Shown piece by piece: positions 3,622 through 39,890 of a DNA stretch of 64,000 nucleotides. Source of the stretch: an uncultured Alphaproteobacteria bacterium. GTDB lineage: Bacteria; Pseudomonadota; Alphaproteobacteria; Rs-D84. The first letter of the stretch is position 1. Each line of letters begins with the position of its first letter. The notes under the pieces were generated by a model. The model was not told where the DNA came from and made no database searches. It saw only the letters and a program-made list of their open reading frames with translations. The position numbers and the translations under genes were made by a program. The stretch spans positions 103,949-167,948 of the forward strand of contig CAJOGC010000002.1 in NCBI GenBank assembly GCA_905234185.1, given 5' to 3'.

Positions 3622-3644
3622 TATCACAAAAATTATAGAGACAT

Positions 3645-3671
3645 AAAAACCCACATGCGTGGGTTTTTTTT
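3645..3671 (+). terminator. Rho-independent terminator after virB10
   Basis: The hairpin ACCCAC-atgc-GTGGGT is followed by a T9 run, 24 nt after the virB10 stop. Confidence 0.7.
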
Positions 3672-3923
3672 ATCGGAAAAAGAGGTTGAAAATGAACACA
3701 TCTTGAACCATATATGTGTACAACAATACGTGCGTGCTTTTCATGCGCGCATTTTATTTATCGCAAAACAGCATGTTTTTGCGATTCGTACATCAAAAGA
3801 AAAATTATTAAAACGAATCGAAAAACCGATTCGCACTTCAATCAAAAGTTGTAGTGTTTAATATTATTCTTATTAAGCCCTATAACACAATTGTAACCAT
3901 TTTATAAAACAATGGAGAAATAA

Positions 3924-6843: not shown

Positions 6844-8562
6844 TTATTCAGATAATTTTACGGAATCATCCAAACATGCATAATCATTTTCACGTAATTC
6901 ATTTAACACACTGTGTATTTTTGTATCGGGCATTCCCATATGACGCAACGCCCGACAACCCAATACAGCGGCTGTTTCAATCGTTTCTGGTAATGCATTA
7001 CATGCACCGTACTTACGCAAAGTCTTGCAATCAGCCAGATTACGCGCACGTGCAAATATTTTGACACGCGGCGCAATAGATTTGACAGTCAACAATGCAT
7101 CTTTGGCGGTTTCCGCATTATCCAGCGCGACAATCACCGCCGCTGTTTTACGCGGATGCAAACCAAAATTGCGCAACACATCGGCATTTTTACAATTACC
7201 GAATACAACATTATAACCCTTTTCACGGCCACGCACGATTGCGTTTACATCCATATCAATCGCAACATATGGGACACAGTTTTGTTCCATTAATTTAGAA
7301 ACAATCTGACCGACACGTCCAAATCCCAATACAATAACTTTTGGTGCGATTTCCAAACCAGATCTGTCCAGACTACGTGGACGATATGCGGCAAAAATCC
7401 ACCCACGGCGGCGCAGGAAATCGTACATCGCCAACAACATTGGCGTTGTCATAATAGACAGTATTATGGTTGCCGTTAAAACTTCGGAACTGGTTGCCGG
7501 GATTGCGTTTATTCCCGCAGTTTTCATCGTCTGCAACATCAACAACCCAAATTCGCCCCCCTGGGACAGCATCAACGCCATAAACACCGCGTCCGGCACC
7601 AACATGCCACGCACGCGCGACACCATGAACAGCGCCATGAATTTTATAAATACCAAACCGCCCAAACCAACCAAGATATATTTCCATTTCATTAACAACA
7701 ACGGCACATTTAAGCCCATGCCAAGCGCGATAAAGAAAAATGCCAGGAATAACATCGAATACGGACTTATTTCCGCACTGATTTGATGGCGATAAATTGT
7801 TTCCGACATTAACATACCGGCCAAGAACGCGCCCAGGCCAACCGGCAACCCCATCATATCTAAAACCGTCGCCCAAATAACGATATTCAGCATAACGGTT
7901 AACAATAATGCTTCGCGACTTTTCAATTTCACAACACGTTTTAACAGCGGATTCAATATAAACCGACCAACAATTACAACCGATATAATCAACAGCAACG
8001 ATAACACCGCAACATCGATTGCCGTCGCACCAAAATTAAATGATTTGCCTGCAAACACCGGCAACATGGCTAAAATAGGAATCGACAATAAATCTTGGAA
8101 CAATAAAATAGAAAACGATTGATTTCCGACATTAGTATTTAATTCGTTTCTGTCTGACAATAATTGTAAATCTTCGGATGTACTGGACATCGCCAAAATC
8201 AGCGCAACCATAATACACCCCAACACCGACCAACGCGTAATACCAAACAATATCGGAAATAACATTACCGCAACGGTCAATACCTGGGACGCACCAAGCC
8301 CAAATATCGTTTTGCGCATAGACCACAGGCGGCTCATATTAATTTCCAAACCAATATTGAACCACAAAAACAAAATGCCCATATCACCCAGTAATTGCCA
8401 GGTTTGATTCATTTCAAAAAGGTTTAATCCAAACGGCCCCGACAAAATACCCGCTGCTAAAAACGCAACCAATGCCCCAATACGTGCGGCGCGCAGGAAG
8501 CATACCAACACAAACAAAATCCCAAAAAATATTAAAAACGATAATGGCATATCTCTCTCCAA
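6844..8562 (-). CDS. CPA2-family K+/H+ antiporter (Kef-type) with C-terminal TrkA-N/RCK domain
   Basis: The N-terminal part is polytopic. It is followed by a Rossmann motif (VIVLGFGRVGQIV) typical of KefB/KefC-like proteins. Confidence 0.85.
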   Translation of the reverse strand: MERDMPLSFLIFFGILFVLVCFLRAARIGALVAFLAAGILSGPFGLNLFEMNQTWQLLGDMGILFLWFNIGLEINMSRLWSMRKTIFGLGASQVLTVAVMLFPILFGITRWSVLGCIMVALILAMSSTSEDLQLLSDRNELNTNVGNQSFSILLFQDLLSIPILAMLPVFAGKSFNFGATAIDVAVLSLLLIISVVIVGRFILNPLLKRVVKLKSREALLLTVMLNIVIWATVLDMMGLPVGLGAFLAGMLMSETIYRHQISAEISPYSMLFLAFFFIALGMGLNVPLLLMKWKYILVGLGGLVFIKFMALFMVSRVRGMLVPDAVFMALMLSQGGEFGLLMLQTMKTAGINAIPATSSEVLTATIILSIMTTPMLLAMYDFLRRRGWIFAAYRPRSLDRSGLEIAPKVIVLGFGRVGQIVSKLMEQNCVPYVAIDMDVNAIVRGREKGYNVVFGNCKNADVLRNFGLHPRKTAAVIVALDNAETAKDALLTVKSIAPRVKIFARARNLADCKTLRKYGACNALPETIETAAVLGCRALRHMGMPDTKIHSVLNELRENDYACLDDSVKLSE

Positions 8563-8573
8563 TTATTGATTAA

Positions 8574-9416
8574 TTATACCACACTCTTGGCAATTTTTAC
8601 AAATGTTTCAGGTGTTAATTCCTGGGCTCGTTCGGTTCCCGACAACCCAAATTGCTTCCAATCCATACCCGGCATAATTCCGCGTATCATTTTGCGACGC
8701 TGGCCGAAAAGTTTTGCGGTTATATTTTCTATTTTTGATAAATCGCCAATCTGTTTCATCTTTTCCGCATTCGGAATAATTTGCACAACCGCACTTTCAA
8801 CCTTTGGTCGCGGGACAAAAGCGGTCGACGGCACACCAAACAATATTTTTGCATCCGCAATTAACGATGTTAACACCGACAAGCGACCATATTGCGCGTC
8901 ACCAGGCTTTGCAACAATGCGTTGTGCAACCTCGCGCTGGAACATTAGTGTCATAGAATTTATGATTTCTGATTTATGATTTCTGATTTGTTCATAGGAT
9001 AAGTGCAACCAATTTAATAATAATTCCGTCCCCACATTATATGGCAGGTTCGCGCAAATCGCATATTCCGTCACCCCCAGCGCACCAAAATCTACTTTCA
9101 GCGCATCATCATAAATTACTTCCAAGCGACCATTGGACGCATCAATAACCCGCGACAAAATTGGTGCGGTTGTTTTATCTTTTTCAATCGCAATAACACG
9201 TGGTGCACCCGCCAACAGCAATGCGCGGGTTAACCCCGCGGGGCCTGGTCCAACCTCTATCACTGGAATCTTTTTAATATTCGGCACGCTGCGTGCAATC
9301 CGTCCAGTCAGATTTAAATCAAACAAGAAATTCTGTCCGAATTGCTTTTTCGGTTCCAAACCACATTCGCGCATCATTTCGGATACGGGTGGCAAAGATT
9401 CTATTTTCATCGTCAT
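8574..9416 (-). CDS. rsmA: 16S rRNA (adenine1518/1519-N6)-dimethyltransferase RsmA/KsgA
   Basis: Motifs KKQFGQNFL, VIEVGPGPAGLTRAL, NLPYNVGT and MFQREVAQR are present. The start overlaps the recR stop (ATGA). Confidence 0.9.
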   Translation of the reverse strand: MTMKIESLPPVSEMMRECGLEPKKQFGQNFLFDLNLTGRIARSVPNIKKIPVIEVGPGPAGLTRALLLAGAPRVIAIEKDKTTAPILSRVIDASNGRLEVIYDDALKVDFGALGVTEYAICANLPYNVGTELLLNWLHLSYEQIRNHKSEIINSMTLMFQREVAQRIVAKPGDAQYGRLSVLTSLIADAKILFGVPSTAFVPRPKVESAVVQIIPNAEKMKQIGDLSKIENITAKLFGQRRKMIRGIMPGMDWKQFGLSGTERAQELTPETFVKIAKSVV

Positions 9417-11183: not shown

Positions 11184-11278
11184 AGCAATTAAAGTTTAGT
11201 AAAATTTTAGTGCGTGGGTCAATAGAGAAATAGAAAACTTTATTTGATTATTATTGCACAATCCTTATAATTTATGCC

Positions 11279-12961
11279 ATGAAACAAAAGTCATACATTA
11301 TTGACGATAAACAACTGATGTCCGAATGGGACTGGGATGCCAATGTTGGTTTAGATCCGAAAACATTAACCCGTGGATCAAATAAAAAGGCATGGTGGGT
11401 ATGTTCGGTATGTGGGCATAAATGGTGTGCCGATATACATCATAGAGCCGTAAGAAAACAAGGTTGTTTAAACTGCCGATATGTATATAAAAAACAACTT
11501 GCTTCTATTTTGTCTGAAACACATCCAAAAGTCCTTAAATACTGGGATTTTTCAAAAAATAAATTGATAACCCCCGAAATTGTCAGCCAGAATTCGCGTA
11601 AAAGCGTTTGGTGGCATTGTCCAGATTGTGGCCATGAATGGGAAGAAAAAATAAAAAATCAGGTTAAAAAATTAGTTTGGTGCCCACATTGTAAGAAGGG
11701 AATTAAAGATTTGGCTTCTGTGGAACCAGAACTTGCAAAAGAATGGCATAAAACAAAAAATACTGATGCCCCAGAACATATTTCGTATGCTTCTAACAAA
11801 TATGCATGGTGGAAATGCCAAAAGTGTGGTTACGAATGGAAAGCCAGAATAGCCAACAGGTCAATATTGAAACGGGGGTGTCCTTGTTGTTCTGGTGGTG
11901 CGGTTGTCGTCGGAATAAACGATTTAAAAACAAAGTTTCCGCATATAGCAAAAGAATGGCACCCTACAAAAAACGGTGAACTTTTACCAGAACAAGTCAC
12001 TTCTGGTACAAGAAAGAAAGTTTGGTGGCAATGCCCACTGGGACACGAATACCAAGCAACGGTAGGACACAGGACATCACAAAATGGCACAGGGTGTCCA
12101 ATATGTTATTCAGGACGTCAAACATCATTCGCTGAACAGGCTGTATTCTTTTATGTAAAACAATTATATCCCGACGCACTAAGCAGGTATAAGGCAGACT
12201 TTTTGGGAAAATTTGAATTGGATATTTATATCCCATCAATCAAATATGCGATAGAATACGATGGTGAAGCATGGCATAAAGCGAATAAATTAGAACGCGA
12301 AAAACGAAAGTATCAATTGTGCAAACAGAACGGCATCACATTACTCAGATTACGAGAAAAGGAACCAGAACATGATGCTGAAGTGGCAGATGATATAATT
12401 TGTGTGAAAAATCTATACGAACACAGAAATCTTGAAATGGTATTAAGACGGTTATTGGTGAAATTGAACCCGCAATCGGTAATGCCTGACAACTTTGTTA
12501 ATTTGGCCAGGGATAATCATAAAATCTTGGAATATAAAAAATCGGCCATATCAGAATCATTGATGTCCGTCAGACCAGATATTGCGATGGAATGGCATCC
12601 AACAAAAAATGGTAACCTGTTACCAAGTATGTTTAAAGCAGGTTCTGAACATAAAGTATGGTGGATTTGTCCAAAGTGTGCCACCGAATATCAAACAAGT
12701 ATTGCTCATAGAACAGATAAAAAGGTTCCAACAGGATGCCCAAAGTGTGGCAAAGAGCGAAGTGACTTAGCGAAAAGTGTCGCTGTAAATATGTTAGATT
12801 TGAAAACGAAAAAAGTATTAAAAACATTCGTTTCTGTATCAGATGCATCAAGGCAAATGAAAATCAATTTATCTAACATATGTATGGCTTGCAAAGGCCA
12901 ACGCAACCAAGCTGGTGGGTACGGTTGGGAATATAATTTAAAAATATGCAAAAGAAAATAA
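11279..12961 (+). CDS. multi-zinc-ribbon protein with central DUF559/Vsr-like PD-(D/E)XK nuclease core and C-terminal NUMOD1-like HTH (homing-endonuclease-like)
   Basis: There are five repeats of [EW..KN...P + WW.C..CGH.W......R....CP.C]. The central block FELDIYIPSIKYAIEYDGEAWH...GITLLRLRE resembles the DUF559 core. The tail (FVSVSDASRQMKINLSNICMACKG..NQAGGYGWEY) resembles NUMOD1/IENR-type DNA-binding modules. Confidence 0.75.
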   Translation: MKQKSYIIDDKQLMSEWDWDANVGLDPKTLTRGSNKKAWWVCSVCGHKWCADIHHRAVRKQGCLNCRYVYKKQLASILSETHPKVLKYWDFSKNKLITPEIVSQNSRKSVWWHCPDCGHEWEEKIKNQVKKLVWCPHCKKGIKDLASVEPELAKEWHKTKNTDAPEHISYASNKYAWWKCQKCGYEWKARIANRSILKRGCPCCSGGAVVVGINDLKTKFPHIAKEWHPTKNGELLPEQVTSGTRKKVWWQCPLGHEYQATVGHRTSQNGTGCPICYSGRQTSFAEQAVFFYVKQLYPDALSRYKADFLGKFELDIYIPSIKYAIEYDGEAWHKANKLEREKRKYQLCKQNGITLLRLREKEPEHDAEVADDIICVKNLYEHRNLEMVLRRLLVKLNPQSVMPDNFVNLARDNHKILEYKKSAISESLMSVRPDIAMEWHPTKNGNLLPSMFKAGSEHKVWWICPKCATEYQTSIAHRTDKKVPTGCPKCGKERSDLAKSVAVNMLDLKTKKVLKTFVSVSDASRQMKINLSNICMACKGQRNQAGGYGWEYNLKICKRK

Positions 12962-13042
12962 AAAACACCGGTGTTCTTGTCTCGGCGTAGTCGCGGCATC
13001 GCTGTGCGATGACGGACGAAGACGGATGCCGGTGTTTTTTTT
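12961..13042. terminator. bidirectional terminator hairpin carrying a ~55-nt palindromic insert in its loop
   Basis: AAAAACACCGG...CCGGTGTTTTTTTT encloses TGTTCTTGTCTCGGCGTAGTCGCGGCATCGCTGTGCGATGACGGACGAAGACGGATG, which contains the inner hairpin CATCGC-tgt-GCGATG. Confidence 0.5.
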
Positions 13043-13056
13043 GTATTTTTTTACAC

Positions 13057-16146: not shown

Positions 16147-16460
16147 TGAAACGTTTTACAAAACGTGTTGAAGATTTTACATGCGCACATTGTGGCGCAA
16201 ATGTTTCGGGCAATGGATACACAAACCATTGCCCGAAATGCTTATATTCACGTCATGTTGATAATACACCGGGCGACCGCGCGTCGAATTGCGGTGGAAT
16301 GATGGCACCAATAAGTATTGAAAAGTCGGGAAACGATTTTATCATTACGCACCGCTGTGAAAAATGTGGCAAAACAATTCGCCAACACACCGCCGAAAAT
16401 GACGACATGGACACAATAATTTCCATTTCCACCAACGATTCGTTTGTGTTTGGAAAATAA
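16146..16460 (+). CDS. RNHCP domain-containing zinc-ribbon protein
   Basis: FTCAHCG...GYTNHCPKCLYSRHVD...NCGGMM...HRCEKCG is present. The start overlaps the stop of the DUF2312 gene by 1 nt. Confidence 0.8.
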   Translation: MKRFTKRVEDFTCAHCGANVSGNGYTNHCPKCLYSRHVDNTPGDRASNCGGMMAPISIEKSGNDFIITHRCEKCGKTIRQHTAENDDMDTIISISTNDSFVFGK

Positions 16461-16472
16461 GCACAATTTTCT

Positions 16473-16506
16473 AAAAAAAAACACCGGCAAACGCCGGTGT
16501 TTTTTT
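16473..16506. terminator. bidirectional terminator
   Basis: A9-CACCGGCaaaCGCCGGTG-T7. Confidence 0.7.
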
Positions 16507-16897
16507 ATTCCCAATAGTCATCATAATAATCCGTTTTGGTTGTTTTTTTCTTCATAACAGGGGTTGTTTTTTGTTTCGTTTTCTTCTTTTTTTCCGTATA
16601 TGCAAATTTCCATTGTTTATAACTTAATGGTGTTTTTCCTTGTTTATCACAATTTACTAAATATTTTCTGTATTTTTCTCGTTGATTTTTACGCTTTTTG
16701 TTTTCTTGTTTTCCATATTCTATACCAATAGATAGCATTGTTATTGCGAATATTACCGCAATATAACCAATAGATAATATTATCCAAAACAAAGAACGAA
16801 TGACAACATCATCTAAACTGGCAAAAGCAGGAAAAGAGCAAGTTAAAAATAAAGACACAAAAAAGATGATTTTTTTCATTTTCTTTTCCTCTTTCAT
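16505..16897 (-). CDS. small membrane protein with Lys-rich tail
   Basis: It has a signal-like N-terminus (MKKIIFFVSLFLTCSFPAFA), one further TM helix, and a strongly basic tail (KKRKNQREKYRK...KKKKTKQK...KKK). It overlaps the upstream gene by 4 nt. Confidence 0.55.
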   Translation of the reverse strand: MKEEKKMKKIIFFVSLFLTCSFPAFASLDDVVIRSLFWIILSIGYIAVIFAITMLSIGIEYGKQENKKRKNQREKYRKYLVNCDKQGKTPLSYKQWKFAYTEKKKKTKQKTTPVMKKKTTKTDYYDDYWE

Positions 16898-17169
16898 TCA
16901 TCTAATAGATCATTTAAAATCTCTATCGCCATTTTTCCGAATCTGGCGCCATTGAAAGAAACTTTATTACTTAATACATTTGCTTGCAGTTGATGTCTTA
17001 GAGCTCTGATACTGTCCTTGCTTGGGATAGTATTAAAATAATTGTTTATTATATAATTAAAGAATTCTTGACTTTGGGCATGTGTTATTTGGTTTGCCAC
17101 AAACCGTACGTTTGATTTACCGCCCATAGAAAAATAAATCCCTTTTACGATATCATCTAGTATGAACAT
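16894..17169 (-). CDS. hypothetical protein, 91 aa
   Basis: The start is moved to ATG 17169 (MFILDDIV), which has an AAGGGG RBS. The track start TTG 17214 lies inside the upstream terminator hairpin. Confidence 0.5.
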   Translation of the reverse strand: MFILDDIVKGIYFSMGGKSNVRFVANQITHAQSQEFFNYIINNYFNTIPSKDSIRALRHQLQANVLSNKVSFNGARFGKMAIEILNDLLDE

Positions 17170-17195
17170 TATCAGCCCCTTGGTGTATATTTTAT

Positions 17196-17403
17196 AAAAA
17201 ACAAAACCGCCCAAGAAAGAGCGGTCGGGGAGTTAGAAAATCAGTTAAGTATGACTCCGCGGTCTTTAGATATACACACGCGGCTCCCCAACCATAGGTC
17301 AGGGATGATTACGGTGCAAAAACACCGAAACATCATTTTAACGATGCTTTCGCACCGACTTAACAGGACTTTCTACAGCCCGAACCCAATCTCTTGGATT
17401 CAT
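17196..17403 (-). ncRNA. candidate structured leader/attenuator RNA, copy A (unclassified)
   Basis: It starts downstream of a TTGCAA-16-TATAAT promoter and ends in a hairpin plus U-run just 5' of the RBS of the 16894 gene. It shares ordered conserved blocks and covarying helices with copy B at 26766..26982. Confidence 0.55.
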
Positions 17404-39503: not shown

Positions 39504-39890
39504 TTATTTTCCCCATCGCGACACAAAAAATTCATTAAAATCCAAATGTTCGTTTATACACATGTGCAATGTATCAACAACCGTTTTCATACCTTGTTTC
39601 GTTAATTCTGCATTTGCAACACGAATAACTTTATAGCCCTGTGATTCTATAAACTCTGTGCGCTTGTTGTCGTATTCAATATTTTCTGCGTGTTGGTTGC
39701 CATCAAGTTCAATAACCAATTTCAATTCATTACACACAAAATCAACATAATATGGACCAAACGGTTGTTGCCGGCGGAACTTTACCCCCAGTTTGTTATT
39801 ATTAATTTGATACCAGAATTTGCGTTCTGGGTCAGACATATTTTTACGCAGGTTTTTTGCACGAATAATGTTTGCTGGGTGATTTGTCAT
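39504..39890 (-). CDS. DUF559 (Vsr-like PD-(D/E)XK) endonuclease-domain protein
   Basis: AKNLRKNMSDPERKFWYQI...KFRRQQPFGPYYVDFVCNELKLVIELDGNQH...YDNKRTEFIESQGYKVIRV is the typical DUF559 sequence. Confidence 0.8.
   Translation of the reverse strand: MTNHPANIIRAKNLRKNMSDPERKFWYQINNNKLGVKFRRQQPFGPYYVDFVCNELKLVIELDGNQHAENIEYDNKRTEFIESQGYKVIRVANAELTKQGMKTVVDTLHMCINEHLDFNEFFVSRWGK

Follow-up and report, generated by a model that had tools for sequence, protein, structure and literature searches.

A 64,000-nucleotide stretch of contig CAJOGC010000002.1 (positions 103,949–167,948), referred to here as the window, carries at 11279–12961 on the forward strand a genuine open reading frame (ORF) of 560 amino acids (aa) that runs from an ATG to a TAA and that, on balance, appears to be a free-standing homing-type (selfish) gene for a site-specific DNA endonuclease. 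Its architecture, intact active-site residues, precise presence/absence polymorphism and a diverged tract beside it were all observed, as were its multiple genomic contexts, a promoter that travels with it and purifying selection. The flanking genes identify the host as an uncultured gut or rumen alphaproteobacterium near Candidatus Enterousia. The gene and its immediate surroundings comprise the following features:

11239–12959, forward strand: inserted segment of ~1.72 kb, promoter plus ORF, delimited by alignments of filled (window, L001) and empty (L011, L016) loci; its ends are uncertain by a few A-rich bases.
11244–11271, forward strand: sigma-70-type promoter, TTGATT-16-TATAAT, 10/12 matches; start predicted from sequence.
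11279–12961, forward strand: coding sequence of a multi-zinc-ribbon Vsr/EDxHD-like endonuclease, 560 aa.
11303–11488, forward strand: DUF4379 zinc-ribbon module 1, aa 9–70 (C42, C45, C63, C66).
11516–11704, forward strand: DUF4379 module 2, aa 80–142 (C114, C117, C135, C138).
11717–11902, forward strand: DUF4379 module 3, aa 147–208 (C180, C183, C201, C204).
11930–12118, forward strand: DUF4379 module 4, aa 218–280 (C252, H256, C273, C276), with a C-x3-H first knuckle.
12119–12493, forward strand: Vsr-like/EDxHD-like PD-(D/E)XK nuclease domain, aa 281–405.
12566–12760, forward strand: DUF4379 module 5, aa 430–494 (C464, C467, C487, C490).
12785–12934, forward strand: NUMOD1/I-HmuI-like helix-turn-helix (HTH) tail, aa 503–552.
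12960–13042, no strand assigned: bidirectional intrinsic terminator, pre-existing and common to the nuclease gene and the convergent lipoprotein gene.

The protein is organized around a central nuclease domain embedded in zinc ribbons. Pfam assigned five stretches to DUF4379, a "probable treble clef zinc finger" (E 2.2e-90), and faint DUF723 matches are on record for the protein; a hidden Markov model derived from the modules placed four of them N-terminal and one C-terminal of the central block. The arrangement of ribbons proposed in an earlier note on this DNA is thereby confirmed, while each module extends over ~62 aa instead of the ~45 aa given there. Four modules follow the pattern CxxC...CxxC, whereas module 4 has C-x3-H in its first knuckle, and all zinc ligands are invariant across 16 orthologues. 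Among the 1086 modules of 120 homologues, C...GHEW is the majority form (second Cys, 40%; GHEW His, 81%). Solved structures of kinetoplastid mitoribosomal proteins include the DUF4379 fold, and the window protein is matched to these proteins by both phmmer (E 2e-12 to 4e-8) and Foldseek (E 8e-14), with module 5 directly matching the DUF4379 mitoribosomal factor 6SGA_Fd by phmmer. These proteins, mS66 and mt-SAF33 (6YXX, 6SGA, 7AOR), share the module, lack a nuclease and reside in ribonucleoprotein complexes; what they establish is limited to the existence of the fold and its use beside nucleic acid. Within the otherwise conserved module, columns 17, 21, 22, 25, 28, 36, 45, 47, 48, 51, 52 and 54 are hypervariable and constitute candidate specificity determinants.

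The central domain belongs to the Vsr-like variant of the PD-(D/E)XK fold and retains the complete EDxHD active-site set, namely a Glu, a metal-binding Asp, an extra acidic residue, a general-base His and a further acidic residue. In a central-domain alignment of 27 diverse homologues (31–57% identical to the window protein), E286, E313, D315, E326, D328, G329, H333, K344 and R357 are invariant and E360 is at least 90% conserved; the PD-(D/E)XK residues, whose absence the earlier note had named as grounds for abandoning its proposal, are thus in place. From the alignment we infer a residue-by-residue correspondence with Vsr. Searching the PDB with the single sequence returned only the DUF4379 mitoribosomal proteins, and nuclease relatives surfaced only with a family profile, whose sole sequence relative was the homing endonuclease I-Bth0305I (3R3P), E326 to H333 aligning to AIEVNGVYW(H) of that structure. 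Because the full-length AlphaFold2 model, built from 16 close orthologues, was poor in the nuclease domain (predicted local distance difference test (pLDDT) score 24–46), it was used for the zinc modules and the tail only, and the nuclease domain was modeled separately with a more diverse alignment. Matches to the core comprised 1XMX (VC1899, a hypothetical protein; 9.3), 3HRL (NGO0050, a DUF559 protein; 9.2), 3R3P (I-Bth0305I; 9.1) and 1CW0 (Vsr; 8.9), followed by type II restriction enzymes and Can2-type nucleases. By sequence, the closest relatives of the core are the EDxHD/Vsr-like homing enzymes of Taylor et al. (PMC3239194).

The core had been described as DUF559-type, which holds at the superfamily level; its closest relative of solved structure is instead I-Bth0305I, and the Pfam model that it passes is DUF2726 (PF10881; 29.4 bits against a threshold of 24.7, E 7.5e-7, aa 320–373). 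DUF559 (PF04480) stayed below its gathering threshold (14.4 against 20.6 bits), and MTES_1575 also matched sub-threshold. The resemblance noted earlier to the protein encoded at 39504–39890 on the reverse strand is real at the superfamily level, since hhalign (E 1.4e-4, probability 53%) brought that stand-alone 128-aa protein, a true DUF559 member (Pfam E 2.9e-34), into register with the central-block family profile at the E, D, ExDG and H motifs. The gene at 39504–39890 is a second, unrelated small member of the Vsr superfamily in the window.

The C-terminal tail is supported as a NUMOD1-like HTH, in line with the earlier note. When isolated, its 66 aa scored just below threshold with I-HmuI_NUMOD-like (PF22083; 24.8 against 27 bits, E 1.6e-5) and NUMOD1 (PF07453; 21.1 against 22.8 bits, E 3.6e-4), and at E ≤ 0.01 homologous tails matched PF22083 in 21/23 cases (best 7.7e-9) and PF07453 in 16/23 (best 3.1e-8). 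In the full-length model the tail forms a beta-beta-alpha-alpha-beta arrangement (pLDDT 81–88) that Foldseek relates to I-HmuI (1U3E, E 4.6e-3) and to the DNA-binding short chromatophore-targeted protein (sCTP) 8B6E (template modeling (TM) score 0.74), the latter also being retrieved by the tail profile (E 1e-6). The top PDB matches of this profile, the Tako8 designed repeat proteins, were rejected as artefacts of summed weak repeats. The tail is carried by about one-third of the best 120 homologues and is therefore an optional module.

The gene sits between a SPOR-domain D-Ala-D-Ala carboxypeptidase gene (dac) and lipoprotein genes, as had been reported; its neighbors also include RecR, RsmA/KsgA, two lipoprotein-like ORFs and a BamE-like ORF. 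The G+C fraction of the nuclease gene is 0.37–0.40 against 0.45–0.52 for dac, and the 64-kb window holds no second copy of it. The dac locus was taken from 80 species-representative genomes of relatives, and in 80/80 of them no homologue was found within 7 kb of dac, which argues against a core function. In L011 and L016, the closest relatives, the site is cleanly empty, with the terminator of the first lipoprotein gene (lip1) ~100 bp from dac. Besides the window, only L001/L099 has the gene at this site, with a protein 79% identical. In a tree of DAC and RecR the two filled genomes do not group together: L011, which is empty, is sister to the window (91%), and L016, also empty, is the partner of L001 (97%); flanking-gene proteins of filled and empty close relatives are 97% identical. 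The conserved synteny that the earlier note had named as a ground for refutation is not seen in relatives; with the clean empty sites and the copies in several other contexts, this supports its reading of a gene outside the core set.

Comparison of L001 with L016 by blastn resolved the junction: 1764 bp in L001 stand where L016 has 11 bp. The two loci are 96–100% identical up to the left junction; right of the gene their identity drops to 63–89% over the ~1.4 kb of lip1-lip2-BamE before recovering to 91–98% in pyruvate kinase. This pattern looks like acquisition or loss by recombination with a diverged allele, and the diverged tract, a candidate co-conversion tract, resembles the flank co-conversion of free-standing homing genes. 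The gene is intergenic with its own promoter and is not encoded in a group I or group II intron; a scan of the window with Rfam returned only two tRNAs.

Two further irregularities were seen in this region. In L016, a 373-aa ORF (8185–9306) is inserted between dac and recR, and recR likewise lies ~1.1 kb from dac in L015, L018 and L079, a second presence/absence polymorphism at the dac locus. Within the window, the G+C fraction falls to 0.28–0.35 at 16250–17250 against ~0.45 around it; this stretch contains a 130-aa ORF on the reverse strand (16505–16897) without a Pfam match and could be another foreign insert.

At least five unrelated neighborhoods encode proteins with 71–75% identity to that of the window. 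The contexts of other copies are:

Between dinB and an SF1 helicase-DUF2726 gene.
Adjoining dCMP deaminase, NADAR and NrdDG, phage-like nucleotide-metabolism genes (L091).
Adjoining an excisionase-type HTH gene and an integrase (L092).
Adjoining a lysozyme-like gene downstream of a murG/ftsW cluster (L093).
Near a C5-methyltransferase.

The 79 loci with usable flanks fell into 52 context clusters without a conserved partner gene; as short contigs and taxonomic distance inflate the number of clusters, the count shows only that such a partner is lacking. The integrase with its excisionase-type HTH (L092), the lysozyme-like gene (L093) and the nucleotide-metabolism genes (L091) near sister copies would suit a cargo or remnant of a transposon, integrative element or prophage that is moved by a recombinase. 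At the dac junction itself this origin is very improbable: the insert consists of promoter and ORF only, no recombinase, transposase or integrase gene adjoins the nuclease gene in the window, no terminal inverted repeats flank the insert apart from the terminator hairpin, the junctions show only A-rich microhomology with no convincing target-site duplication, and no tRNA or att-like site is adjacent. A 56%-identical homologue, L103 (5001–6659), contains a single in-frame stop in place of the conserved Trp of "KEWH"; the gene may be a pseudogene, the stop may stem from a sequencing error, or the codon may be recoded in the host or phage.

The family is large and variable in layout. The nuclease profile reached 28,492 clusters at 50% identity with E ≤ 1e-3, 6,875 with E ≤ 1e-10 and 777 with E ≤ 1e-30, the domain starting anywhere from residue 3 to 567 of the protein. 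The best 120 homologues contain 5–12 modules, with 0–9 before the nuclease and 0–7 after it, so that nuclease placement varies within the family. Among PHROG families, those matched are annotated as homing or HNH endonucleases (phrog_559, 4e-42; phrog_3339, 1e-14). Phage relatives are free-standing genes between essential phage genes with the same zinc-ribbon plus Vsr-like make-up, exemplified by gp011 of Campylobacter phage PC14, which is Hef-like, and by a Salmonella phage Vi II-E1 gene flanked by tail genes. The scan of viral contigs found four loci only, owing to the peptide patterns chosen, and shows only that relatives exist in viral contigs.

A dedicated promoter accompanies the gene. 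The TATAAT that the earlier note had spotted is the −10 hexamer of the promoter at 11244–11271; it ends 7 nt upstream of the ATG, no Shine-Dalgarno (SD) motif is present, and the mRNA is predicted to be leaderless. The promoter is kept in copies from six genomic contexts, all with the form TTG(A/T)TT-16/17-TATAAT-6/7-ATG and no SD motif, and is also present in L099–L102, L164, L123 and L141. Since homology between copies begins at the −35 hexamer, the promoter travels with the gene. The arrangement TTTGATTATT-N-TATAAT-N6-ATG is nearly identical in L164 (~1140–1190; L100, ~3640–3685), whose protein is only 41% identical to that of the window, so the promoter is better conserved than the coding sequence. 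The idea that a leaderless start implies foreign origin was dropped: in a control on the window, ~7/44 crude gene calls have a −10-like hexamer 4–10 nt upstream of the ATG and only ~13/44 have an SD-like motif, which makes the feature host-typical, and leaderless initiation may be common in this host. The corresponding count in metagenome loci (15/78) is indicative only, because the automatic start-finder misplaces starts in repeat-rich homologues.

The 3′ end differs between lineages. Sister copies are 14–16 codons longer and have their own terminator, both of which have been lost in the window/L001 lineage, where the host terminator is used. In both empty alleles this terminator is a simple palindrome, CACCGGC-GTTT-GCCGGTG, while its loop is ~52 nt longer in the window (fold −40.1 kcal/mol, z −4.8) and ~24 nt longer in L001 (9690–9760), the two expansions being partly similar. 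Across six homologues the ratio of nonsynonymous to synonymous substitutions (dN/dS) is 0.06–0.15, similar to that of the housekeeping flanks; dS is saturated (>1), so these values are approximate. They indicate that the nuclease gene is under purifying selection.

Such constraint, at a dN/dS of ~0.1, would also be expected of a stand-alone defence or restriction-like nuclease in which the zinc array and the HTH recognize foreign DNA, phage-derived or modified for example, for cutting by the Vsr-like domain, with selection maintaining the gene and horizontal transfer carrying it between variable or defence islands. The gene indeed sits in a hot spot of gene content, one copy lies near a C5-methyltransferase, and giant-virus homologues are annotated as putative restriction endonucleases (PMC5513546). 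Moreover, an SF1 helicase gene adjoins the copies at L003 (9913–12429, reverse strand) and L150/L151 (2209–4917, forward strand), whose nucleases are 72% and 47% identical to that of the window. The two helicases are 35% identical over 805 aa, show partial PADLOC matches to MkoA, MkoC and Hhe (Mokosh/Hhe-like), and in L003 the helicase ends in a DUF2726 nuclease domain. This adjacency may reflect co-residence in defence islands or functional pairing; as a general partnership it was rejected, being confined to two context groups and not found in the window. We consider a defence role rather unlikely, given that neither a conserved partner nor a cognate methyltransferase emerged among the 79 loci or in the window, that the sole PADLOC 2.0 match of the protein is a weak one of its tail to "HEase" (homing endonuclease; E 4e-4), and that in phage genomes themselves free-standing homologues lie between essential genes. 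The NUMOD1 tail and the nearest characterized relatives, the homing enzymes I-Bth0305I and Hef, point the same way.

Comparison with known systems places the protein among homing-type endonucleases of a recently recognized kind. I-Bth0305I is an intron-encoded 266-aa enzyme with two N-terminal NUMOD2-type HTH motifs and a C-terminal nuclease (PMC2677866, PMC3239194, PDB 3R3P), which acts as a homodimer with a preference for a pseudopalindrome (PMC3239194). It lacks zinc ribbons, whereas the window nuclease is internal and flanked by 4+1 DUF4379 modules; four ribbons occupy the N-terminus in place of NUMOD2-type motifs, the HTH is NUMOD1-type and C-terminal, and the gene is free-standing in a bacterial chromosome. 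Closer in plan are the homing endonuclease genes (HEGs) of phage group I/II introns that join CapR/DUF4379/DUF723 repeats to an EDxHD/Vsr nuclease, a "large unrecognized outgroup" (Merk et al. 2025, PMC12350094). The window gene shares with them several ~60-aa zinc ribbons (DUF4379, faint DUF723; five here, where three to five CapR/DUF4379/DUF723-related ribbons are expected), the attached Vsr/EDxHD-like nuclease and thousands of unannotated relatives. Unlike those intron-borne genes, in which a ~100-aa nuclease domain is C-terminal, it is intergenic and intron-free, continues past its internal nuclease with a fifth module and a NUMOD1 tail, and is chromosomal with a demonstrable empty site.

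Its genomic setting recalls Hef and the Hef-like enzymes of T4-like and Campylobacter phages, whose genes are likewise free-standing and occupy intergenic positions among conserved genes. Endonuclease activity is reported for Hef, as cited in PMC3322345, and Taylor 2011 (PMC3239194) connected Hef to the Vsr-like family. Gp011 of phage PC14 aligns to aa 102–360 with zinc-ribbon matches and an MTES_1575/Vsr-like domain; it is only ~26% identical, misses the DUF4379 model and is phage-borne rather than chromosomal. T4 Seg/Mob enzymes and I-TevI/I-HmuI offer a working analogy in the promoter-plus-ORF cassette between conserved genes and the NUMOD1-type C-terminal HTH, and co-converted flanks would be expected for Seg/Mob-type enzymes and the window gene alike. 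Those enzymes have GIY-YIG or HNH folds and no zinc-ribbon array, in contrast to the Vsr-like window enzyme. The repeat-plus-nuclease plan is also shared by giant-virus DUF4379 proteins, among them a "putative restriction endonuclease" with four DUF4379 domains in a study of Lausannevirus (PMC5513546). The architecture is thus already known from bioinformatics, through the 2025 "unrecognized outgroup of EDxHD/Vsr HEGs" and earlier in giant viruses; in the literature searched we found no biochemical study of a DUF4379-bearing nuclease.

For the favored explanation, a free-standing homing gene, DNA binding by the zinc modules, the specificity of cleavage, the position of the target and homing itself are what we infer. 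The enzyme, possibly dimeric, would combine a Vsr/EDxHD-type catalytic domain set within five DUF4379 modules with a NUMOD1-type HTH, the zinc modules and the HTH together reading a long DNA site. As in Vsr and I-Bth0305I, D315 and E326 would bind the Mg2+ used for cleavage and H333 would serve as general base. The mobile unit would be promoter and ORF alone, joined in sister copies by the gene's own terminator, and would be expressed from a leaderless mRNA. Spread would begin with an encounter between DNA of a gene-bearing allele and an empty one: the enzyme would cleave the empty dac-lipoprotein junction or a site close to it, and recombinational repair would copy the gene together with adjoining flank, which constitutes co-conversion. 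More speculatively, the target may include the terminator palindrome that is uninterrupted in the empty allele and split in filled ones. A wider combined picture, which we regard as rather doubtful, would make the tandem DUF4379 modules a modular DNA-reading array with an embedded cutter, a natural "zinc-finger nuclease" whose modules each combine a conserved scaffold with about twelve hypervariable positions on the surface. In that picture the copy at dac would home into the terminator of the empty allele, a loop expansion of 24–52 nt separating the half-sites of CACCGGC-GTTT-GCCGGTG would protect gene-bearing alleles from their own enzyme, and the family would form a huge reservoir of long-site, possibly re-programmable nucleases spreading among bacterial chromosomes and phages.

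Several points weigh against homing. Cleavage and homing are putative for every DUF4379-bearing member, and so is the target site. Strong purifying selection on a chromosomal gene fits a host-beneficial role too, and two copies adjoin the helicase-nuclease genes that resemble defence proteins. Between the window and L001 the gene is about as diverged as its flanks (dS 1.5 against 1.2–1.5), so that long vertical inheritance with precise loss in sister lineages is possible. The junction upstream of dac (window 11184–11278 and 12962–13056) is a general hot spot of gene content: Stealth-like (DLVYMWVDG...) genes occupy it in L017 (one) and L012 (two, replacing the lipoprotein operon), and in L015 and most Ca. 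Enterousia genomes no gene separates dac from pyruvate kinase. Only the window, L001, L016 and L017 have the lip1-lip2-BamE operon, which most Enterousia lack (in L011, lip1 and the end of lip2 precede the contig end), and the diverged tract holds these putative lipoprotein genes, which could be variable for reasons of their own. Ordinary recombination at a hot spot with variable lipoprotein genes could therefore account for the pattern.

The same observations would accommodate a domesticated gene, encoding a host DNA-binding, nicking or repair protein, or one carried passively and shuffled by homologous recombination at the hot spot: the divergence resembles that of the flanks, the diverged tract spans the whole variable lipoprotein operon, and the ancestral 3′ end of the cassette (14–16 codons and terminator) has given way to the host terminator. 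Vsr itself is a repair nickase. The catalytic residues are nevertheless invariant in very diverse homologues, the gene is missing from almost all relatives, and close copies are scattered over unrelated loci, each with its own promoter, which together make domestication or passive carriage unlikely.

The nuclease profile extends over 6,875 clusters at 50% identity (E ≤ 1e-10), yet the literature searched holds no biochemistry of proteins combining DUF4379 repeats with a Vsr/EDxHD-type nuclease. Filled and empty alleles of one intergenic site in close relatives constitute an unusually clean natural experiment, and the defined cassette boundaries and candidate co-conversion tract provide direct substrates for questions of homing, cut site and module reading. 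Were the modules to prove a recognition code, the family might be of interest to nuclease engineers. For annotation, genes of this architecture labeled "zinc-ribbon domain-containing" or "hypothetical" are better treated as mobile nuclease genes than as core genes.

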